DNA of 64,000 nt, from NCBI RefSeq assembly GCF_013003965.1, contig NZ_CP053069.1, positions 525,419 through 589,418 of the forward strand. The letters run 5' to 3'. The notes under the pieces were generated by a model that saw only the letters and a list, made by a program, of their open reading frames with translations, had not been told where the DNA came from and did not search any database. Shown one piece after another: positions 7,505-41,848 of this stretch. Source of the stretch: Usitatibacter rugosus. Its GTDB lineage: Bacteria; Pseudomonadota; Gammaproteobacteria; Burkholderiales; Usitatibacteraceae. The translations under genes were made by a program, and so were the position numbers. Positions within the stretch are counted from its first letter, which is position 1; the number at the start of each line of letters is the position of its first letter.

Positions 7505-8480
7505 GGGGCACCACCAGTTGCGCCTCGACGCCGGCGGGTTCCGCGTGTGAAAGCTCTACGTGCGCCCGGTCGCCATGCAAGCTCGCGAGCCTCTCACGGA
7601 GGTTCGTGAGCCCTGTGCCGGTGCCCATCTCCGCGCCGAACCCGAGGCCATCGTCGGTGACGCGCAGCACGAGCTGGCCGCCGCGGCTTTCCCCTGCGAT
7701 CACCACGCGGCCGCCCGCGGCGCGACGCTCGAGGCCGTGCTTCACGGCATTCTCGACCAGCGTCATCACGCTAAGCGGCGGGACGGACACGTCGTTCAGC
7801 GCGGTCGGCACGGCGATCTCGTACCGCAGGCGCTCGCCCATGCGGATGCTCATGATCGAAAGGTACGCCTCGGTGCGGGAGAGTTCCTGTCCCAGCGTCG
7901 AGCGGCCCGAGCGGACGTCGGGGATGCTGGTCTTCAGGTAGCGGATCAGGCTCTCCAGCATGCGGTCAGCGGCCGCCGCGTCGCTGCGTACGAGCTGCTG
8001 CACGTTTGCGAGCGTGTTGTAGAGGAAGTGGGGCTCGACCTGCGCCTGGAGCGCACTCAGGCGCAACTCCGCGAGTTGCCGTTCCTGCGTTGCACGCGAG
8101 AGAGCGTCGCGTTGCAGGATCGCTGTCACGAGGAGCGTCGCCGCGAGCAGTGCGGCCAGGCCGAGATCGAACGCGAGGTCGGCATTCGGAAACTTCATCG
8201 CGGCGTTGCTCCAGCGTAATGCGGCCGTCGCGATGGCCGCGCCGAGTGCGGACGCCACGAGCGCCAGCGCGACCTGGAAGCGGATATCGCGACGCGAGAG
8301 GTATGCAGTTGCCAGGACTAGGCCGGCATGCGCGATGGCGCACGCCAGGGCGAGCTGGAGAAAACGGCCCAGCCACGCACTCCATCCCGCGTAAGCGAAG
8401 GCGCAGCCCGCGACGATCGCCGCGGCGATCCACGCCGCGGGCGATCCGAACGGCGCCGAATCAGGATTCGCCGAAGCCAA
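7497..8480 (-). CDS. LytS/YehU-type sensor histidine kinase (membrane domain plus His_kinase/HATPase)
   Basis: About five N-terminal TM helices, then the H-box-like region LSALQAQVEPHFLYNTLANVQQLV and a GHKL ATPase region (VENAVKHG...DDGLGF). Confidence 0.8.
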   Translation of the reverse strand: MASANPDSAPFGSPAAWIAAAIVAGCAFAYAGWSAWLGRFLQLALACAIAHAGLVLATAYLSRRDIRFQVALALVASALGAAIATAALRWSNAAMKFPNADLAFDLGLAALLAATLLVTAILQRDALSRATQERQLAELRLSALQAQVEPHFLYNTLANVQQLVRSDAAAADRMLESLIRYLKTSIPDVRSGRSTLGQELSRTEAYLSIMSIRMGERLRYEIAVPTALNDVSVPPLSVMTLVENAVKHGLERRAAGGRVVIAGESRGGQLVLRVTDDGLGFGAEMGTGTGLTNLRERLASLHGDRAHVELSHAEPAGVEAQLVVPLG

Positions 8481-28657: not shown

Positions 28658-28665
28658 GGACCGCC

Positions 28666-30048
28666 ATGAAGACGATGCGCTCGCTTCTCATCGGCGTGGC
28701 GATGGCCACCGCCATCCTCCCGGCCATCGCCCAGCAGCCCGCGAAATGCCAGCTCGCGAAGATCGCGGAGTGGCCGGTTCGATTCGTCGGAAACAATCCG
28801 GTTATCGACGGTGCTATCAACGGCAAGAAGATCACGATCCTCCTGGACACCGGCTCCTACGTGAGCCTGGTCATGAAGGCATCGGCGGAGAAGCTCGGGT
28901 TGAACCTGAGGGGGACGGGCCAGTTCGCGGGCGGCTTCGGCGGCTCGACGCCGATCTTCGTGACGAATATCGAGGAGATGCGTATCGGCGAATCGGTGCG
29001 GAAGAACTGGCGTGTGCGCGTCGCGGGCGAAGGCGCTCCTCCGTTCGACTTCATCCTCGGCGACGATTTCTTCAGGCAGGTCGATCTCGAGTTCGACTAC
29101 GCCAAGGGCGTGGTGCGCGTCTTCCAGCCGGAGAACTGCAAGAGCGCCTTTCTCGGATATTGGGATGCGAACGCGCAGGTGCTGCCGATGTTGAACGACA
29201 AGCAACATGTCGTGGTGCCCATCAAGATCAATGGCCGCGAGGGAAGGGCCACGCTCGACAGTGGCGCCGCGGGCTCGCTCGTTTCGCTTGCATTCGCGGA
29301 GAGCGTGGGCATCACGAAGGATTCCCCGGGCGTCCTTCCGGGCGGATGCTCGTCCGGCATGGGAGGCACGGGCCTGCGCAACTGGGTGTCCCGGTTCGAC
29401 TCGGTGTCCATCGGCAACGAGACGATCCGCGATCCGATGCTCCGCATCCAGGATTACTCGACGACGGACATGAGGCAGGCGTCCGACATGTTCCTTGGCA
29501 CCGATTTCCTGAAATCGCACCGCGTGTACATCGCGCGAAGCCAGGACAAGGTGTACTTCTCGTATACCGGCGGGCAAGCGTTCACAGCGACGCCCGGCGT
29601 CGATTGCGACAAGCGCGAGGCCGACAAGGGCACGCCGGAGCTGCTGGCGTCCTACCAGCAGGCGCTCGCGGCCAACCCGAATGACACGAAGACGCTGATG
29701 CAGCGCGCGGACCTTCGCCGTCGCACGGGCGATTCGCCGGGCGCGATGGCCGACCTCGACGCGGTGATCAAGCTGGAGCCGACCAACGGTGTGGCACTCG
29801 CAATGCGCGCGTCGATGCGGGCGCAGGCGAAGGACATCGATGGCTCGCTCGCCGATTCCGAAGCGGCGATTGCGCAAGGGATTCGCATGGCGCCGATGTA
29901 CGCGAACCGCGGGGCGATGTATCGATCCAAAGGCAATTGCGAGCGCGCGATCGTGGAGTACGAGGAGGCGCTGAAGATCGATCCCAACCTGCAGTCCGCG
30001 CTGCGCGGACGCGATGCGTGCCGCAAAGGTGAAGCGAAGAACGAGTGA
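28666..30048 (+). CDS. secreted tandem retropepsin-like aspartic protease domains with C-terminal TPR repeats
   Basis: Signal peptide. Two D-T/S-G-A motifs (ILLDTGSYV and TLDSGAAGS). C-terminal TPR-like helices (AMYRSKGNCERAIVEYEEALKIDPN). Confidence 0.65.
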   Translation: MKTMRSLLIGVAMATAILPAIAQQPAKCQLAKIAEWPVRFVGNNPVIDGAINGKKITILLDTGSYVSLVMKASAEKLGLNLRGTGQFAGGFGGSTPIFVTNIEEMRIGESVRKNWRVRVAGEGAPPFDFILGDDFFRQVDLEFDYAKGVVRVFQPENCKSAFLGYWDANAQVLPMLNDKQHVVVPIKINGREGRATLDSGAAGSLVSLAFAESVGITKDSPGVLPGGCSSGMGGTGLRNWVSRFDSVSIGNETIRDPMLRIQDYSTTDMRQASDMFLGTDFLKSHRVYIARSQDKVYFSYTGGQAFTATPGVDCDKREADKGTPELLASYQQALAANPNDTKTLMQRADLRRRTGDSPGAMADLDAVIKLEPTNGVALAMRASMRAQAKDIDGSLADSEAAIAQGIRMAPMYANRGAMYRSKGNCERAIVEYEEALKIDPNLQSALRGRDACRKGEAKNE

Positions 30049-30061
30049 CGCAAAAATGTAG

Positions 30062-30090
30062 TTGACACGTTCGTGGCGCGCGACTAAAGT
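30062..30090 (+). promoter_or_regulatory. sigma70-like promoter TTGACA-N17-TAAAGT
   Basis: -35 TTGACA at 30062-30067, 17-nt spacer, -10 TAAAGT at 30085-30090. Confidence 0.5.
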
Positions 30091-30096
30091 TCGCTC

Positions 30097-30322
30097 CCTC
30101 ATTCAACACAGCACGACTATTAACCGGACATGAAACACAGCCTTCACATCAACCAGACGCAACCACGCGCTTCCGAGCCGCGGGTCGGGACCTTTGCGTC
30201 CTGCCTACGCGACGGTGCGACGTATCGCGACTACTCCGGGAGGATGACGGCCTAAAACCCGCTCATCCATCGTGCTGTGACACGAAGCCCGGAGATCGAA
30301 AGACTCCGGGCTTTTTGCTTTT
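30097..30322 (+). ncRNA. candidate small RNA (about 220 nt), 6S-like long-range closing helix, ends at an intrinsic terminator
   Basis: Predicted promoter just upstream. 5' CACAGCACGA (30107-30116) pairs with 3' TCGTGCTGTG (30270-30279). Terminator hairpin CCCGGAG..CTCCGGG plus CTTTTTGCTTTT. No ORF. Confidence 0.4.
30288..30322 (+). terminator. rho-independent terminator
   Basis: GC stem CCCGGAG/CTCCGGG followed by a T-run. Confidence 0.65.
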
Positions 30323-30334
30323 CTTGCGTTGTTT

Positions 30335-30360
30335 GTCATTCCCGCGAAAGCGGGAATCGC
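30335..30360. repeat. dRS3-like palindrome GTCATTCCCGCGAAAGCGGGAATC (ATTCCC-N8-GGGAAT, GAAA tetraloop hairpin)
   Basis: Second copy at 41820-41848. Confidence 0.7.
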
Positions 30361-30453: not shown

Positions 30454-30530
30454 GCCCCGCTGGCGGAATCGGCATACGCGCTGGTCTCAGGAACCAGTCC
30501 TTCCGGGTTCGAATCCCGGGCGGGGTACCA
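30454..30530 (+). tRNA. tRNA-Leu(CAG)-like, non-canonical: class I length (77 nt) with a 5-nt variable loop instead of the long Leu variable arm
   Basis: Hand-folded cloverleaf: acceptor GCCCCGC/GCGGGGT, Leu-type D-arm GGCGGAATCGGCATACGCG, anticodon loop CTCAGGA, T-arm CCGGG-TTCGAAT-CCCGG, A73, encoded CCA. Confidence 0.5.
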
Positions 30531-30536
30531 ATCAAC

Positions 30537-30614
30537 ACCCTTGTAGCTCAGCGGATCGAGAGCGCCTGGCTACGAACCAGGAGGACGGGAGTTCGATTCT
30601 CTCCGAGGGTGCCA
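30537..30614 (+). tRNA. tRNA-Arg(ACG)
   Basis: Acceptor ACCCTTG/CGAGGGT (A1:U72, one G-U). D-arm GCTC-AGCGGATCGA-GAGC. Anticodon arm CCTGG-CTACGAA-CCAGG. T-arm GGGAG-TTCGATT-CTCTC. G73 and CCA. Confidence 0.65.
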
Positions 30615-30615
30615 T

Positions 30616-30691
30616 GCCTTCCTAGCTGGTCTGGTGACAGCGCCGCGCCGAAATCGCGGAGAGCTCCGCTCGAAACGGAGGGGAGGCACCA
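30616..30691 (+). tRNA. tRNA-Phe(GAA)-like, non-canonical (C33, T-loop CTCGAAA); starts 2 nt after the Arg tRNA
   Basis: Full cloverleaf: acceptor GCCTTCC/GGGAGGC, D-arm GCTG-GTCTGGTGA-CAGC, anticodon arm CCGCG-CCGAAAT-CGCGG, 4-nt variable, T-arm CTCCG-CTCGAAA-CGGAG, A73 and CCA. Confidence 0.45.
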
Positions 30692-30760
30692 CGTTGTCGG
30701 ACATGCAACTTCATGCACTTAAGTCCATTAAGTCCATGAAGCTGCATCTCGGAAGTCCAC

Positions 30761-30834
30761 GGTGATCTTGGTGTAGCGACAGCACATCGCGCTGTGAACG
30801 CGAAAGGTCCGGTTCGATTCCGGCGATCACCCCA
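30761..30834 (+). tRNA. tRNA-His(GTG) with encoded G-1, C73 and CCA; T-stem slightly irregular
   Basis: G-1 then GTGATCT..GATCAC, C, CCA. Anticodon loop CTGTGAA. T-loop TTCGATT. Confidence 0.55.
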
Positions 30835-30991
30835 CTCACGTACAGCAGGGACCACATCCGCATGCGCCTCGAAAGAGGCACACCAGATTCGTCTGGAACG
30901 CATCGCAGAGGGCGAGGCTCGTGAGTCCTCCCTGGCGCGCTCGCCCGAAGTCGGAGGGGCGCGTACCGCGGTACGGGAAGGACGGATACAG

Positions 30992-31065
30992 GGCGACCTA
31001 GCTCAGCTTGGGAGAGCGCCGGCGAAAGCCGGAGGTCGTGGGTTCGAATCCCATTGTCGCCACCA
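30992..31065 (+). tRNA. tRNA-Ala-like cloverleaf whose anticodon loop is replaced by a GAAA tetraloop (74 nt, no anticodon)
   Basis: Acceptor GGCGACC/TGTCGCC, A73, CCA. Ala-type D-arm TAGCTCAGCTTGGGAGAGC. Anticodon arm CCGGC-GAAA-GCCGG. T-arm GTGGG-TTCGAAT-CCCAT. Confidence 0.45.
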
Positions 31066-31136
31066 TTGCATAGCTCAGTCTGGAAGAGCGATCGGCTGAT
31101 AACCGACTGTCGCGGGTTCGACTCCCGCTGCAAACC
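31064..31136 (+). tRNA. tRNA-Ile(GAT)-like with a defective acceptor stem; overlaps the CCA of the upstream tRNA-like; no encoded CCA
   Basis: D-arm GCTC-AGTCTGGAA-GAGC. Anticodon arm ATCGG-CTGATAA-CCGAC. T-arm GCGGG-TTCGACT-CCCGC. Acceptor has only 5 bp (TTGCA/TGCAA). Confidence 0.4.
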
Positions 31137-31433
31137 TCGCGCGGAAGCGCTTGTGCGATGACAGCAGTACCCGGAACCGTCCCCGCGAAGCAGTGCATCG
31201 CTTCGCAGCGCGGACCGGCTTGCGCACCGATGCGTGCGCGATGGATGGAGCGGCAACAGCCGGACGACGCGTCGCTCGCGAGGCGCGGCCGCTTCCCCCA
31301 TCGCGGCGCCCGGAGCCCGCCGGATCGGCGTGGGGCGGTTCCACCCTATTCGTGGTTCAAGGAGCAGTCGCAGCAACAAGGAGCAGTCGCAGTAGAAGCA
31401 TCCATTTGTCCAACAGAGGAAAGGAGGTTGATC

Positions 31434-32567
31434 GTGTTTGGGAAATACCATGTGAAGAAGGACGAGCGAGCGCTCCTGTTCCGCAAAGGAGACTTCGTTC
31501 GCGTGCTCGGTCCTGGGGAGCACAAGGTTCCGTTCTTCGGCGGCTATGAGGCCGAGAAGTATTCGGTCGACAAGCCGCTGTTCGAGCACCGCCTCGCGGA
31601 GTACCTGCGCAAGGCGGAACCGGAAGCGGTCGAACGCGAGTTCGTCGCCCTGGAGCTCGGCCCGATGGAAGTAGGCCTGCGCTACGAGAACGGCGTGCTG
31701 GCGGAAGTGCTCGCACCGGAGACGCGTCGCCTGTACTGGAAGGGCTTCGTGGAGATCCGTTTCGAGACCTTCGACATCACGCGCGATTTCGCCATCGCGC
31801 CGGCGCTCGCGCGCCAGCTCGCGGCCGGTTCGGTGCGTGGCTCGCGCGTCGCAGGCACCGAAGGCGTCTTCGCGGTGCAGGTGCCGCAGTACCACGTCGG
31901 CGTGCTGTACGTGGACGGCAAGGTCGAGAAGCTGCTCGATGCCGGCCTGCATGCCTACTGGAAGTACCACCGCGACCTGCGCGCGGAGCTCGTGGACCTT
32001 CGCCTCCAGTCGCTGGAGGTGGCGGGCCAGGAGATCCTCACGAAGGACAAGGTGTCGCTGCGGGTGAACCTGAACGCGGGGTATCGCGTGACGGACGTGC
32101 GGGTCGCCTACGCGAAGCAGGCCAAGCCGATGGACTACCTGTACAAGGAGCTCCAGTTCGGCCTGCGCGCGGCGGTGGGCACGCGCACCCTGGACGAGCT
32201 GCTCGAGAACAAGGGCGTGATCGACGAGGTGGTCGAGCGCCACATCAAGCGCCGCGTCGAAGGCTTCGGCCTCGAGGTGGACTCGGTCGGCGTGAAGGAC
32301 ATCATCCTGCCGGGTGACATGAAGCTGATCCTGGCGAAGGTGGTGGAGGCGGAGAAGGTGGCGCAAGCCAACGTGATCCGCCGCCGCGAGGAAACGGCGG
32401 CGACGCGTTCGCTGCTGAACACCGCCAAGGTGATGGAGGACAGCCCGATCGCCCTGCGCCTGAAGGAGCTGGAAACGCTGGAGAAGGTCACCGAGAAGAT
32501 CGACAAGATCTCGGTGTTCGGAGGCCTCGACGGCGTGCTGAAGGATCTCGTGAAGATCCGTGCATGA
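31434..32567 (+). CDS. SPFH/band-7 family protein
   Basis: GTG start 6 nt after AGGAGG. SPFH-type domain. C-terminal coiled-coil region. Confidence 0.75.
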   Translation: MFGKYHVKKDERALLFRKGDFVRVLGPGEHKVPFFGGYEAEKYSVDKPLFEHRLAEYLRKAEPEAVEREFVALELGPMEVGLRYENGVLAEVLAPETRRLYWKGFVEIRFETFDITRDFAIAPALARQLAAGSVRGSRVAGTEGVFAVQVPQYHVGVLYVDGKVEKLLDAGLHAYWKYHRDLRAELVDLRLQSLEVAGQEILTKDKVSLRVNLNAGYRVTDVRVAYAKQAKPMDYLYKELQFGLRAAVGTRTLDELLENKGVIDEVVERHIKRRVEGFGLEVDSVGVKDIILPGDMKLILAKVVEAEKVAQANVIRRREETAATRSLLNTAKVMEDSPIALRLKELETLEKVTEKIDKISVFGGLDGVLKDLVKIRA

Positions 32568-32665: not shown

Positions 32666-33577
32666 ATGCGTCACGCCGTGTTCGCGCTGGCCGCGCTGCT
32701 TCTTGCCGCATGCCATTTTCCCGAGCCGAAGGTCGGCCTCGCAGGTCCGTTGCCCCTCGACCTCACCTACCGGGAGGCCCGCGGCGGCCTCGTGATCCTG
32801 ACCGGCCGCGTGGACGACCGCGAGGACGTGGACTTCATCCTCGACACGGGCGCCCCGGTGAGCGTGCTCCTCGACGGCAAGCGGACCACGAAGCTGGGCC
32901 TCGATACTCGCCTCGCCGTCCCGCTCGGCAACCCCAACAATCCCGCGACACCCACGGGCGTCCTTCGCGGCGATACGCGCATCGCGTTCAACGGCGTCAC
33001 GCTCTTGGGACTCACGGTCGTGGTCATTCCCGAGAAGTCGATGCCGTGCAGTGAGCGCTTCGACGAGATCGGCTTCGCCGGCGTGATCGGCGCGGATCTC
33101 TTCCGAAAGTTCGTCGTGGAGATCGATCCCGTCGCCAAGCGCGTTCGCCTGCACGACCCCGCCAAGTGGCAGCCTTCGCCGGGCGCCTCCATCGTTCCCA
33201 TCGCGTTCCGCGACGGCCACCCGTTCACGATGGTGAAAGTGCGCCTGCCTTCGGGTGACACCGTCTCCGAGGACATGAACATCGACATCGGCATGAACGG
33301 CTCGATCTCGCTCGTAGCCGGTAGCCACCCCGCCATCGTCATGCCGAAGGACGGCAAGCCGGGCAACTCGTGCTTCGTGAACGGCGCGCGCAGCGAGATG
33401 ATCGGGGCTCCGCTCGACGTGACGCTCGGCACGAAGAGCTTCCGCGTCGAGGCGCCGCGCTATACCGAGTACCTGAATGCGGTGAGCGACAAGCGCGGCG
33501 GCACGCTCGGCGTGAAGCTCTTCCAGGGCGAGCGCCTCACCATCGACTATCCCGGCAAACGCATAGTGGTAGGATAA
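32666..33577 (+). CDS. lipoprotein, retropepsin-like aspartic protease
   Basis: Lipobox LLAAC. Motif FILDTGAPVSVL. Second half also pepsin-like (IDIGMNGSISL). Confidence 0.65.
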   Translation: MRHAVFALAALLLAACHFPEPKVGLAGPLPLDLTYREARGGLVILTGRVDDREDVDFILDTGAPVSVLLDGKRTTKLGLDTRLAVPLGNPNNPATPTGVLRGDTRIAFNGVTLLGLTVVVIPEKSMPCSERFDEIGFAGVIGADLFRKFVVEIDPVAKRVRLHDPAKWQPSPGASIVPIAFRDGHPFTMVKVRLPSGDTVSEDMNIDIGMNGSISLVAGSHPAIVMPKDGKPGNSCFVNGARSEMIGAPLDVTLGTKSFRVEAPRYTEYLNAVSDKRGGTLGVKLFQGERLTIDYPGKRIVVG

Positions 33578-41819: not shown

Positions 41820-41848
41820 CGTCATTCCCGCGAAGGCGGGAATCCCGG
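41820..41848. repeat. second dRS3-like palindrome CGTCATTCCCGCGAAGGCGGGAATCCCGG; contains the S41 peptidase stop codon
   Basis: ATTCCC-N8-GGGAAT with a GAAG loop. Confidence 0.7.

Follow-up and report, generated by a model that had tools for sequence, protein, structure and literature searches.

A 683-bp stretch of the Usitatibacter rugosus chromosome, at positions 30454 to 31136 of a 64,000-nucleotide (nt) segment of contig NZ_CP053069.1 that we refer to as the window, contains six tRNA-shaped genes and lies ahead of a gene for a slipin, a stomatin-like protein of the SPFH/Band-7 family. A preliminary description, based on hand folding, had listed the six genes as one dense array of aberrant tRNAs. 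ARAGORN reported all six at exactly these coordinates on the + strand, spanning 30454-31136, and no further tRNA anywhere in the 64 kb. Five of the six scored above the gathering threshold (29 bits) of the Rfam tRNA model RF00005, at 45.7 to 62.4 bits; the Phe-like gene was missed by this model in the window, and its orthologue in the related locus L003 scored 48.4 bits. The tRNA finders did not replace the hand folds with canonical structures, since ARAGORN itself returned a 2-nt anticodon for gene 5 and a short tRNA-Leu. The region is also neither an rRNA-operon spacer nor a tmRNA, two identities that had been raised: Rfam detected no rRNA or tmRNA in the window, and ARAGORN detected no tmRNA.

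All six RNA genes are co-oriented with the slipin gene, which starts 298 nt downstream of the last of them. Comparison with related loci divides the stretch into part A (30454-30834), an array of four tRNA genes, and part B (30897-31136), a structured leader followed by two tRNA mimics. The mimics resemble b7a-tRNA, a predicted RNA with a strong likeness to tRNA, located next to a Band-7 protein and RtcB (Burroughs and Aravind 2016, as summarized in 10.1101/312249). The earlier view that this is an array with tRNA-like RNAs and not a housekeeping operon is retained; the treatment of the six genes as a single class is not, since genes 1 to 4 form the array and genes 5 and 6 a separate mimic. 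The features, with the ARAGORN gene calls, are as follows.

30454-30530, + strand: gene 1, Leu-CAG (ARAGORN)
30537-30614, + strand: gene 2, Arg-ACG (ARAGORN)
30616-30691, + strand: gene 3, Phe-GAA (ARAGORN)
30692-30760, + strand: 70-nt gap with an AT-rich spacer hairpin, ATGCAACTTCATG / CATGAAGCTGCAT (minimum free energy, -24.5 kcal/mol; z = -4.68; 0/200 shuffles as stable)
30761-30833, + strand: gene 4, His-GTG (ARAGORN); the encoded CCA ends at 30834
30897-30991, + strand: conserved structured leader, ~95 nt, directly 5' of mimic domain 1; CAG(C/A)GG..GAGG-loop-CCTC..CTGG, then GCGC...GTCGG...GCGCGTACCGCGG
30992-31065, + strand: gene 5, called '???' with a 2-nt 'aa' anticodon by ARAGORN; mimic domain 1 (b7a-type), with normal acceptor, D and T arms and CCGGC-GAAA-GCCGG for the anticodon arm, then ACCA
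31064-31136, + strand: gene 6, called Ile-GAT by ARAGORN; mimic domain 2 (b7a-type, 31066-31136), with a 5-bp acceptor (TTGCA/TGCAA), invariant D and T arms, the loop CTGATAA and no CCA
31137-31433, + strand: rest of the 5' region, with the motif GCAGTACCCGG (31164-31174), a GC hairpin, two repeats of CAAGGAGCAGTCGCAG and an AGGAGG ribosome-binding site
31434-32567, + strand: slipin (SPFH/Band-7, stomatin-like), 377 amino acids, GTG start (Pfam Band_7, E = 2.4e-29; PH stomatin 3bk6, E = 2.8e-21)

The slipin start at GTG 31434 was chosen from the alignment of homologues and the ribosome-binding site. Homologues 73 to 94% identical to the protein are named slipin family protein or HflC-like; the closest come mostly from metagenomes, with one from 'Betaproteobacteria bacterium GR16-43', and neither PADLOC nor NCBIfam has a specific family or model for this slipin. 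An exact protein look-up yielded three related loci (L001 to L003), each with a tRNA array immediately ahead of its slipin gene, and a one-genome-per-species scan with a slipin alignment added 80 more, giving a related set of 83 loci and, with the window, 84 sources. ARAGORN revealed two layers upstream of the slipin gene in these loci: the mimic pair is found widely, and an array of up to 16 ordinary-looking tRNAs is found only in closer relatives. Conservation in related genomes had been proposed as a check on the hand folds, and the structures do recur, with compensatory changes, in dozens of related loci, which goes beyond chance.

Tandem tRNA mimics and their leader

Genes 5 and 6 cannot act as decoding tRNAs, and neither has a 7-nt anticodon loop with a conserved anticodon. 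In gene 5 (Rfam, 49.2 bits), the 7-nt loop is replaced by the 4 nt GAAA. The preliminary description was right about this tetraloop hairpin and the normal arms around it; its 'Ala-like' label has to be dropped. Alanine identity is defined by G3:U70, and gene 5, which has C3:G70, is therefore without it. Gene 6 starts inside the ACCA that follows gene 5, and its Rfam match covers model positions 3 to 68 only. As already noted for this Ile-like gene, its acceptor has 5 bp, it overlaps the preceding CCA and it has no CCA of its own, a departure from the canonical acceptor of 7 bp, discriminator and CCA; genes 1 to 5 are each followed by CCA.

In the related loci, ARAGORN detected an adjacent or overlapping tRNA-like pair ~250 to 430 nt before the slipin start, in Pseudomonas, Burkholderia, Ralstonia, Undibacterium, Dechloromonas, Azonexus and a Synechococcus among others; the 'anticodons' of the pair are arbitrary and, with 2 or 4 nt, often impossible. 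We aligned the tandem mimic from 21 loci with MAFFT, without fitting the alignment to any structure, and used registers slid by 1 to 3 columns as controls. In the true register, 95.3% of the cells were paired, with double changes in 27/40 pairs, as against 36 to 48% paired in the slid registers. RNAalifold independently recovered both mimic cloverleafs and the leader, and a covariance model of the tandem domains built from the same alignment gave a slipin-proximal match in 77 of the 84 sources. When sequences were folded singly, the six tRNAs of the window gave weak z scores (-1.9 to +0.2), as is usual for tRNAs, and the structural evidence therefore rests on covariation.

The 5-bp acceptor of domain 2 is present in all loci and covaries (TTGCA/TGCAA, TTCCA/TGGAA, TTCGA/TCGAA, CTGGA/TCCAA). 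Its loop is 7 nt long in 54 loci, with varying 'anticodons' and with CTGATAA as the most frequent sequence; Pseudomonas and Burkholderia have a UUCG or GNRA tetraloop there instead. The orthologous anticodon-arm loops of domain 1 are GNRA, UUCG or of odd lengths, from 0 to 18 nt. In many loci (L021-L034, L039, L041, L044, L051, L059 and L066 among them), domain 1 is a 7-bp acceptor-like minihelix with a 1- to 9-nt loop, located ~400 nt upstream of the slipin gene and frequently followed by ACCA. The minihelix of L066, for example, reads GGTGATG-CCGCA-CATCACC-ACCA, and the Burkholderia loci (L051, L059) have other linkers. From this pattern, the conserved core of domain 1 seems to be its acceptor stem together with the NCCA end. 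Given the variable or tetraloop anticodon loops and the reduction to a minihelix with ACCA, we conclude that selection acts on the L-shape and on the acceptor/ACCA end and not on decoding.

The leader is common to all locus types and nearly 100% identical between the window and L001. RNAalifold applied to 21 loci of both locus types gave 13 pairs, 6 of them with double changes, and the structure was recovered in a second RNAalifold run. No Rfam family matches the leader or covers the element as a whole; at permissive E-values, Rfam returned only tRNA, a sub-threshold match to YrlA and noise. The palindrome CGTACCGCGGTACG (30962-30975) sits in the GYRTRCCGCGG motif of the leader. This palindrome and two tetraloop hairpins had been noted before and assigned to both intergenic gaps; they exist, but all three lie in the 158-nt gap, and the 70-nt gap holds the different, AT-rich hairpin. 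The two tetraloop hairpins (GCCTC-GAAA-GAGGC, 30866-30879, and CCAGA-TTCG-TCTGG, 30883-30896) are conserved only in the nearest relative, L001.

Beyond the mimics, the GCAGTACCCGG motif is conserved, as judged by alignment and RNAalifold. Shortly before the slipin ribosome-binding site come two direct repeats of CAAGGAGCAGTCGCAG (31358-31392), spaced by 19 nt and with diverged copies in L001; they might serve as an operator or in translational control. A Y-RNA-like closing stem connecting the leader to the 3' side of domain 2 was considered and rejected, as RNAalifold yielded only a 3-bp, poorly supported long-range helix.

The accessory tRNA array

Each of genes 1 to 4 has an encoded CCA, the correct discriminator base and a 7-nt anticodon loop with an anticodon that is conserved among orthologues. 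Arrays are found upstream of the mimics in 24 loci, with a conserved order, Leu...Arg...Phe...His, which is also the order in the window. In relatives they hold up to 16 colinear genes at the same position; that of L012, for example, runs Leu-Gly-Glu-Ala-Pro-Arg-Asp-Lys-Thr-Phe-Gln-Ile-Asn-His. Part A is a cut-down, colinear form of the accessory tRNA array of related Betaproteobacteria. Its four species are among the five most frequent in slipin-linked arrays, where we counted His-GTG in 20, Phe-GAA in 14, Leu-CAG, Arg-ACG and Glu-TTC (tied) in 12 loci each, Asp-GTC in 11 and Lys-CTT in 10. The array species His, Asp, Asn, Lys, Arg, Glu and Gln include classic ribotoxin targets. L001, which is 94% identical to the window, is without the Leu and Arg genes through a clean indel, indicating that the array is modular and shrinking in this lineage.

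The preliminary description had considered only the Arg and His genes usable. Arg-ACG is indeed the most canonical member (Rfam, 62.4 bits; CCA encoded) and is found in 12 slipin-linked arrays, but the comparative data do not support the exclusion of Leu and Phe: stems of the Leu family are 98.8 to 100% paired with an invariant A73, and those of the Phe family are 97.9% paired. The Leu-CAG gene (Rfam, 52.9 bits) has a Leu-type 3-bp D stem with a long D loop, G1-U72, A73 and CCA, combined with a variable loop of 5 nt (TCCTT). Bacterial class II tRNA-Leu has a variable stem-loop of ~11 nt or more, and the earlier assignment of this gene to class I is borne out by its sequence. Normal Leu-CAG genes of 85 to 88 nt occur in the sister arrays L021-24, L029, L032 and L066.

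The Phe variant has the D arm GCTG-GTCTGGTGA-CAGC, a 4-nt variable loop and CCA, together with the C33 (anticodon loop CCGAAAT) and the T-loop CTCGAAA reported before; the gene begins 1 nt behind the Arg CCA rather than 2. The cloverleaf is its minimum-energy fold. Among nine orthologues, 97.9% of the cells are paired, with double changes at 13/21 pairs, against 37 to 55% paired in slid controls. The orthologues have the T-loop [C/A/T]TCGAAA, and C33 is confined to the window and L001. The AT-rich spacer that follows (30692-30760) has diverged in L001, where the inverted repeat survives with 9/11 arm positions pairing by eye; L003, with 7 nt between Phe and His, does not have it.

The His gene, taken earlier for a normal member, is itself aberrant. 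It encodes G-1, which pairs with C73, and has 6 further acceptor pairs; nucleotide 7 is unpaired, the D loop has 7 nt and no GG, the T stem has 4 bp, and 1 nucleotide is missing at the junction of T stem and acceptor (Rfam, 45.7 bits). Pairing in six orthologues is 100% for the acceptor, D and anticodon stems, with compensation at two acceptor positions, and the first T-stem pair is mismatched in 5/6. One of the double changes, T5-A68 to C5-G68, separates the window from L001.

Uridine is near-universal at position 33 of tRNAs. In the slipin-linked arrays, 22/161 tRNAs have another nucleotide there, versus 18/565 in viral arrays, and the exceptions are concentrated in His (7/20), Glu (6/12; five C33 and one G33) and Phe (2/14). 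C33 recurs in array His (YCGTGAC, CCGTGAA), Glu (CCTTCAA) and Phe, in L001, L012, L014, L022, L023, L033, L034, L050, L066 and the window. The aberrations of genes 1 to 4 are inherited, conserved family traits under selection rather than random defects.

A class I tRNA-Leu family shared with viruses

The short Leu gene is also present in L004, L009, L010, L012 and L027, and a pattern search for class I spacing located it in 58 IMG/VR viral contigs (L084-L141), mostly in phage tRNA clusters with as many as 28 genes; some of the viral copies differ very little from that of the window. In 47 distinct sequences of the family, the stems are 98.8 to 100% paired through many pair types and A73 never varies; CCA is encoded in 24 of the 47. 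A literature search on class I phage tRNA-Leu returned nothing relevant. More speculatively, the widespread short tRNA-Leu of the phage arrays may be an undescribed functional class, charged by bacterial leucyl-tRNA synthetase (LeuRS) without the variable arm.

The viral loci that carry the class I Leu gene contain no slipin or RtcB. The D arm of the Phe variant had 0 matches in viral contigs and the leader motif had 1, at a contig edge, from which we conclude that the slipin module is not viral. The viral short Leu genes are 74 to 78 nt long with a 5-nt variable loop, have the anticodons TAG, CAG, CAA, TAA and GAG, and often adjoin a normal long-arm Leu-TAA. In one viral contig, L139, ARAGORN called two '???' genes of tRNA-like form, whose anticodons have 2 nt (aa, ca), next to a class I Leu-TAG (7544-7618); anticodon-less tRNA mimics may also occur in phages.

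Association with RNA repair genes

In about 50 of the 83 related loci, tblastn placed the gene for the RNA ligase RtcB next to the slipin gene, usually just downstream. Forty loci have a divergent upstream gene for the regulator RtcR (PF06956 and Sigma54_activat), and 28 have a gene for the nucleotidyltransferase RlaP that follows. The sigma-54 promoter motif TGGCAC-N5-TCGCW lies 460 to 590 nt before the slipin start in 32 loci, a position that puts the leader and mimics inside the 5' region of the operon. In several of the closest relatives (L002, L004, L006, L008 and L010), a gene for an AAA-family ATPase of ~350 amino acids lies directly downstream of the slipin gene, the position of RtcB in other lineages.

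The window has neither a divergent rtcR nor a TGGCAC-N5-TTGCW-type promoter, both of which occur in 32 to 40 more distant loci; no sigma-54 motif was found upstream of its slipin gene. We tabulated arrays against RtcR in those 77 loci, the window included, for which 2.5 kb or more of sequence was available on the upstream side. None of the 39 loci with RtcR has an array, and among the 38 without RtcR, 24 have an array and 14 do not. The loci are phylogenetically clustered, and this exclusion is therefore to be read as a pattern and not as the outcome of a statistical test. It suggests one slipin lineage in which the tRNA array takes the site that the regulator and promoter have elsewhere.

RtcR is activated by 5' tRNA halves ending in a 2',3'-cyclic phosphate (PMC7790460). 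Experiments in Anabaena offer a parallel: deletion of trcR de-represses rtcB and a 26-gene tRNA operon (trn) together with genes for a slipin and an AAA ATPase, and the trn operon and rtcB are induced under translation stress and by translation inhibitors; the authors proposed that the array tRNAs may be sponges for toxin RNases (PMC10272220, PMC8421152). Phage tRNAs have been reported to evade tRNA-targeting defenses via anticodon-loop changes (PMC10264068, PMC11555353).

Interpretation and alternatives

With a probability of about 0.65, we interpret the 683-bp stretch as the RNA-coding front end of the slipin locus, its array and its leader with mimics serving in a tRNA-damage response with RNA repair. 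In relatives, the unit lies downstream of an RtcR-dependent sigma-54 motif and is followed by RtcB and often RlaP, and it therefore belongs to a tRNA-damage response/RNA-repair system. A role in the response to tRNA damage is likely, and we infer a mechanism in which the RNA block would be co-transcribed with the slipin gene and processing by RNase P and an RNase Z-type enzyme would free the array tRNAs and the mimic. The mimic would offer the slipin oligomer the L-shape of a tRNA, with an ACCA end in this lineage. It could then be the RNA cofactor of the slipin or a decoy or sensor for tRNA-directed ribonucleases, by analogy with the Y RNA and Ro60 in rsr-yrlBA-rtcBA. The array might provide spare, possibly nuclease-insensitive copies of tRNA species commonly attacked by ribotoxins.

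Several known systems share parts of this arrangement. As in the b7a-tRNA/Band-7 module, a tRNA-like RNA gene is adjacent to and co-oriented with a Band-7 gene, in the same arrangement in 77 of the 84 sources; unlike that module, the window has no RtcB, RtcR or RlaP and has a tandem two-domain mimic, a conserved leader and an upstream tRNA array. According to the summary in 10.1101/312249, b7a-tRNA may be redundant with the Y RNA YrlA. The YrlA/YrlB and Rsr (Ro60) system, rsr-yrlBA-rtcBA (RF02553), is similar in that the tRNA-mimicking RNA of the relatives lies inside an RtcR/sigma-54-controlled RtcB operon and is paired with a ring- or cage-forming scaffold protein, and YrlA has a weak match across the T arm of domain 1 and the D arm of domain 2 (31019-31119; 31.2 bits versus a threshold of 69). 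In contrast to YrlA, the element has no Ro60/TROVE gene among its neighbors and no Ro-binding stem, its partner is an SPFH/Band-7 protein, and it has two complete cloverleafs instead of one module.

Part A is comparable to long tRNA arrays (L-arrays) such as the trn operon of Anabaena PCC 7120 (PMC8421152, PMC10272220), which also consist of extra, horizontally spread tRNA genes, several of them non-canonical; the trn operon has the repressor TrcR in common with rtcB and a slipin gene. The array in the window differs from the L-arrays in having four genes (up to 16 in relatives), in being fused to a b7a-slipin unit rather than merely co-regulated, and in belonging to the Betaproteobacteria. 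It shares with tRNA array units (PMC4758250, PMC5966550) the form of a dense, non-housekeeping tRNA cluster of varied specificity; such units have at least 20 genes at a density of at least 2 per kb (Tran et al. 2016), whereas there are six in the window and no more than 16 in relatives, at a chromosomal site with no mobile-element genes nearby. With phage tRNA clusters that counter anticodon nucleases (PMC10264068, PMC11555353), it has in common the class I Leu family and loop deviations of the C33 type; unlike these clusters, the array is host-encoded next to a repair module, and any nuclease resistance is putative.

Several observations weigh against the assignment to a tRNA-damage response. 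No RtcB (E <= 1e-5), RtcR or RlaP is encoded in the 64-kb window, and the connection to repair is made here by homology of the slipin gene and of the RNA and leader, not by local gene content. According to 10.1101/312249, the b7a-tRNA prediction was never validated for any member, and it is a secondary description in that source to which the elements studied here appear to correspond. The array is eroding in this lineage, L001 having lost Leu and Arg and the window keeping 4 of up to 16 genes, and C33 in Phe and the weak T stem of His could be early decay. Finally, the AlphaFold2 model of the slipin from a 12-sequence alignment (predicted local distance difference test, 41.6; predicted template modeling score, 0.24) was too poor to infer RNA binding.

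It is conceivable that the mimics and leader act in cis, as a structured 5' leader that controls the slipin gene (and rtcB where present), and not as a trans-acting cofactor or decoy. Such a leader could sense the capacity for tRNA processing or modification, titrate a protein that binds tRNA or set the timing at which RNase P cleaves the mRNA. The placement of leader and mimics between the sigma-54 motif and the slipin start in the 32 loci with the motif is what this model would predict, as are the conserved structure that extends both upstream (leader) and downstream (GCAGTACCCGG, GC hairpin) of the cloverleafs, the mimic-to-start-codon distance, which is kept at 220 to 550 nt, and the direct repeats that flank the ribosome-binding site. 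However, YrlA, the analogous Y RNA, is likewise encoded within its operon and yet functions in free form, as a ribonucleoprotein RNA; domain 1 is frequently followed by ACCA, which suggests that a tRNA-like 3' end is released; and no terminator/anti-terminator alternative was seen. We therefore regard control in cis as unlikely, if worth taking seriously.

A second alternative, that genes 1 to 4 and perhaps all six are decaying pseudogenes of a horizontally acquired phage-type tRNA cluster with no present function, appears to us distinctly improbable. The stems are 94 to 100% paired with many double changes, one of them between the two closest relatives; all four array genes keep CCA and the correct discriminator base; and the 24 arrays agree in gene order and in their placement relative to the slipin gene. 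The C33 variants, which together with the His D loop without GG and the His T-stem mismatches could be taken for decay, are recurrent, fixed lineage traits (CCTTCAA in Glu, YCGTGAC in His), even though position 33 deviates more often in these arrays than in the viral ones (22/161 versus 18/565). Acquisition from phages would be consistent with the occurrence of the class I Leu family in 58 viral contigs, with some almost identical copies, and decay with an array that shrinks within the lineage, from as many as 16 genes to the 4 of the window and the 2 of L001. Still, no integrase or phage genes flank the array, and the viral loci have no slipin or RtcB. That the block is an ordinary housekeeping tRNA operon, over-interpreted, can be dismissed almost entirely, as its five genes above the Rfam threshold and normal-looking Arg-ACG are outweighed by the missing anticodon loop of gene 5, the 5-bp acceptor and missing CCA of gene 6, the arbitrary 'anticodons' of their orthologues, a class I Leu, and a tie to a slipin gene instead of rRNA or translation genes.

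The tRNA-damage response interpretation can be extended into a more specific proposal, which we offer as speculation and think doubtful. In slipin modules without RtcR, the phage-type array would replace the damage-sensing regulator, making a self-contained 'tRNA insurance' unit. The non-canonical tRNAs (the class I Leu; His, Glu and Phe with C33; His without the 7:66 pair) would escape anticodon and acceptor nucleases, and the mimic, with an acceptor minihelix and ACCA as its core, would link attack on tRNAs to the slipin scaffold, as a decoy or as a sensor.

Neighboring features

The window has a G+C content of ~66%, and TctC, RraA-like and TonB-receptor genes are present in it. A BLAST search of phages and plasmids with a 951-bp region returned generic single-tRNA matches only (70 to 86% identity) and no syntenic relative. 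Upstream of the RNA block is a gene for a retropepsin-like aspartyl protease with TPR repeats (28663-30045, end to 30048), which has a weak match to the PADLOC candidate defense component PDC-M08B (E = 9e-15). A second retropepsin-like aspartyl protease gene (32666-33574) lies on the other side, and the pair brackets the RNA block and slipin gene, an arrangement that is kept in L001 and partly in L002.

A scan for sigma-70 promoters gave none that was convincing immediately before tRNA-Leu. In the interval from the protease gene to the array, a sigma-70-like promoter (TTGACA-17-TAAAGT, 30062-30090) begins a region, 30062-30325, that includes ~230 nt of strong structure (minimum free energy, -89.4 kcal/mol; z = -5.54; 0/200 shuffles as stable), ends in a terminator-like hairpin (30285-30313) and a T-run, and contains a 41-amino-acid open reading frame (30130-30255). 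L001 has this region at 97% identity, and Rfam returned no match to it; we regard it as a candidate gene for a small RNA or a small protein. A palindrome with the look of a repetitive extragenic palindromic (REP) element, GTCATTCCCGCGAAAGCGGGAATC, is present at 30335-30358 and, with 1 mismatch, at 41821-41844; zero copies are expected by chance.

Implications

The kind of system is already known, as the b7a-tRNA/Band-7 RNA-repair module and as accessory tRNA arrays, and the locus is a variant without RtcB or RtcR and with a fused array. For its tandem-plus-leader anatomy, the reduction to a minihelix with ACCA, the mutual exclusion of array and RtcR, and the phage-wide class I Leu, we found no description in the reachable literature, although Burroughs and Aravind 2016 may cover some of these. 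Recent biochemical work on Pseudomonas RtcB-RlaP operons leaves the Band-7-associated mimic unmentioned.

To the Band-7-associated mimic predicted in 2016, the analysis adds an anatomy, consisting of a leader, a domain 1 that is often a minihelix with ACCA, and a domain 2 with a 5-bp acceptor. It also adds a placement, since the sigma-54 motif lies upstream of the element where RtcR is present and the element is thus likely in the 5' region of the operon, and a new association, in which RtcR-less slipin loci carry tRNA arrays instead. Carriers available in culture include Pseudomonas citronellolis, Burkholderia contaminans, Ralstonia pickettii, Variovorax and Undibacterium. The class I Leu family, for its part, bears on the recognition of tRNA by LeuRS and on the idea of accessory tRNAs built to evade tRNA-targeting toxins.

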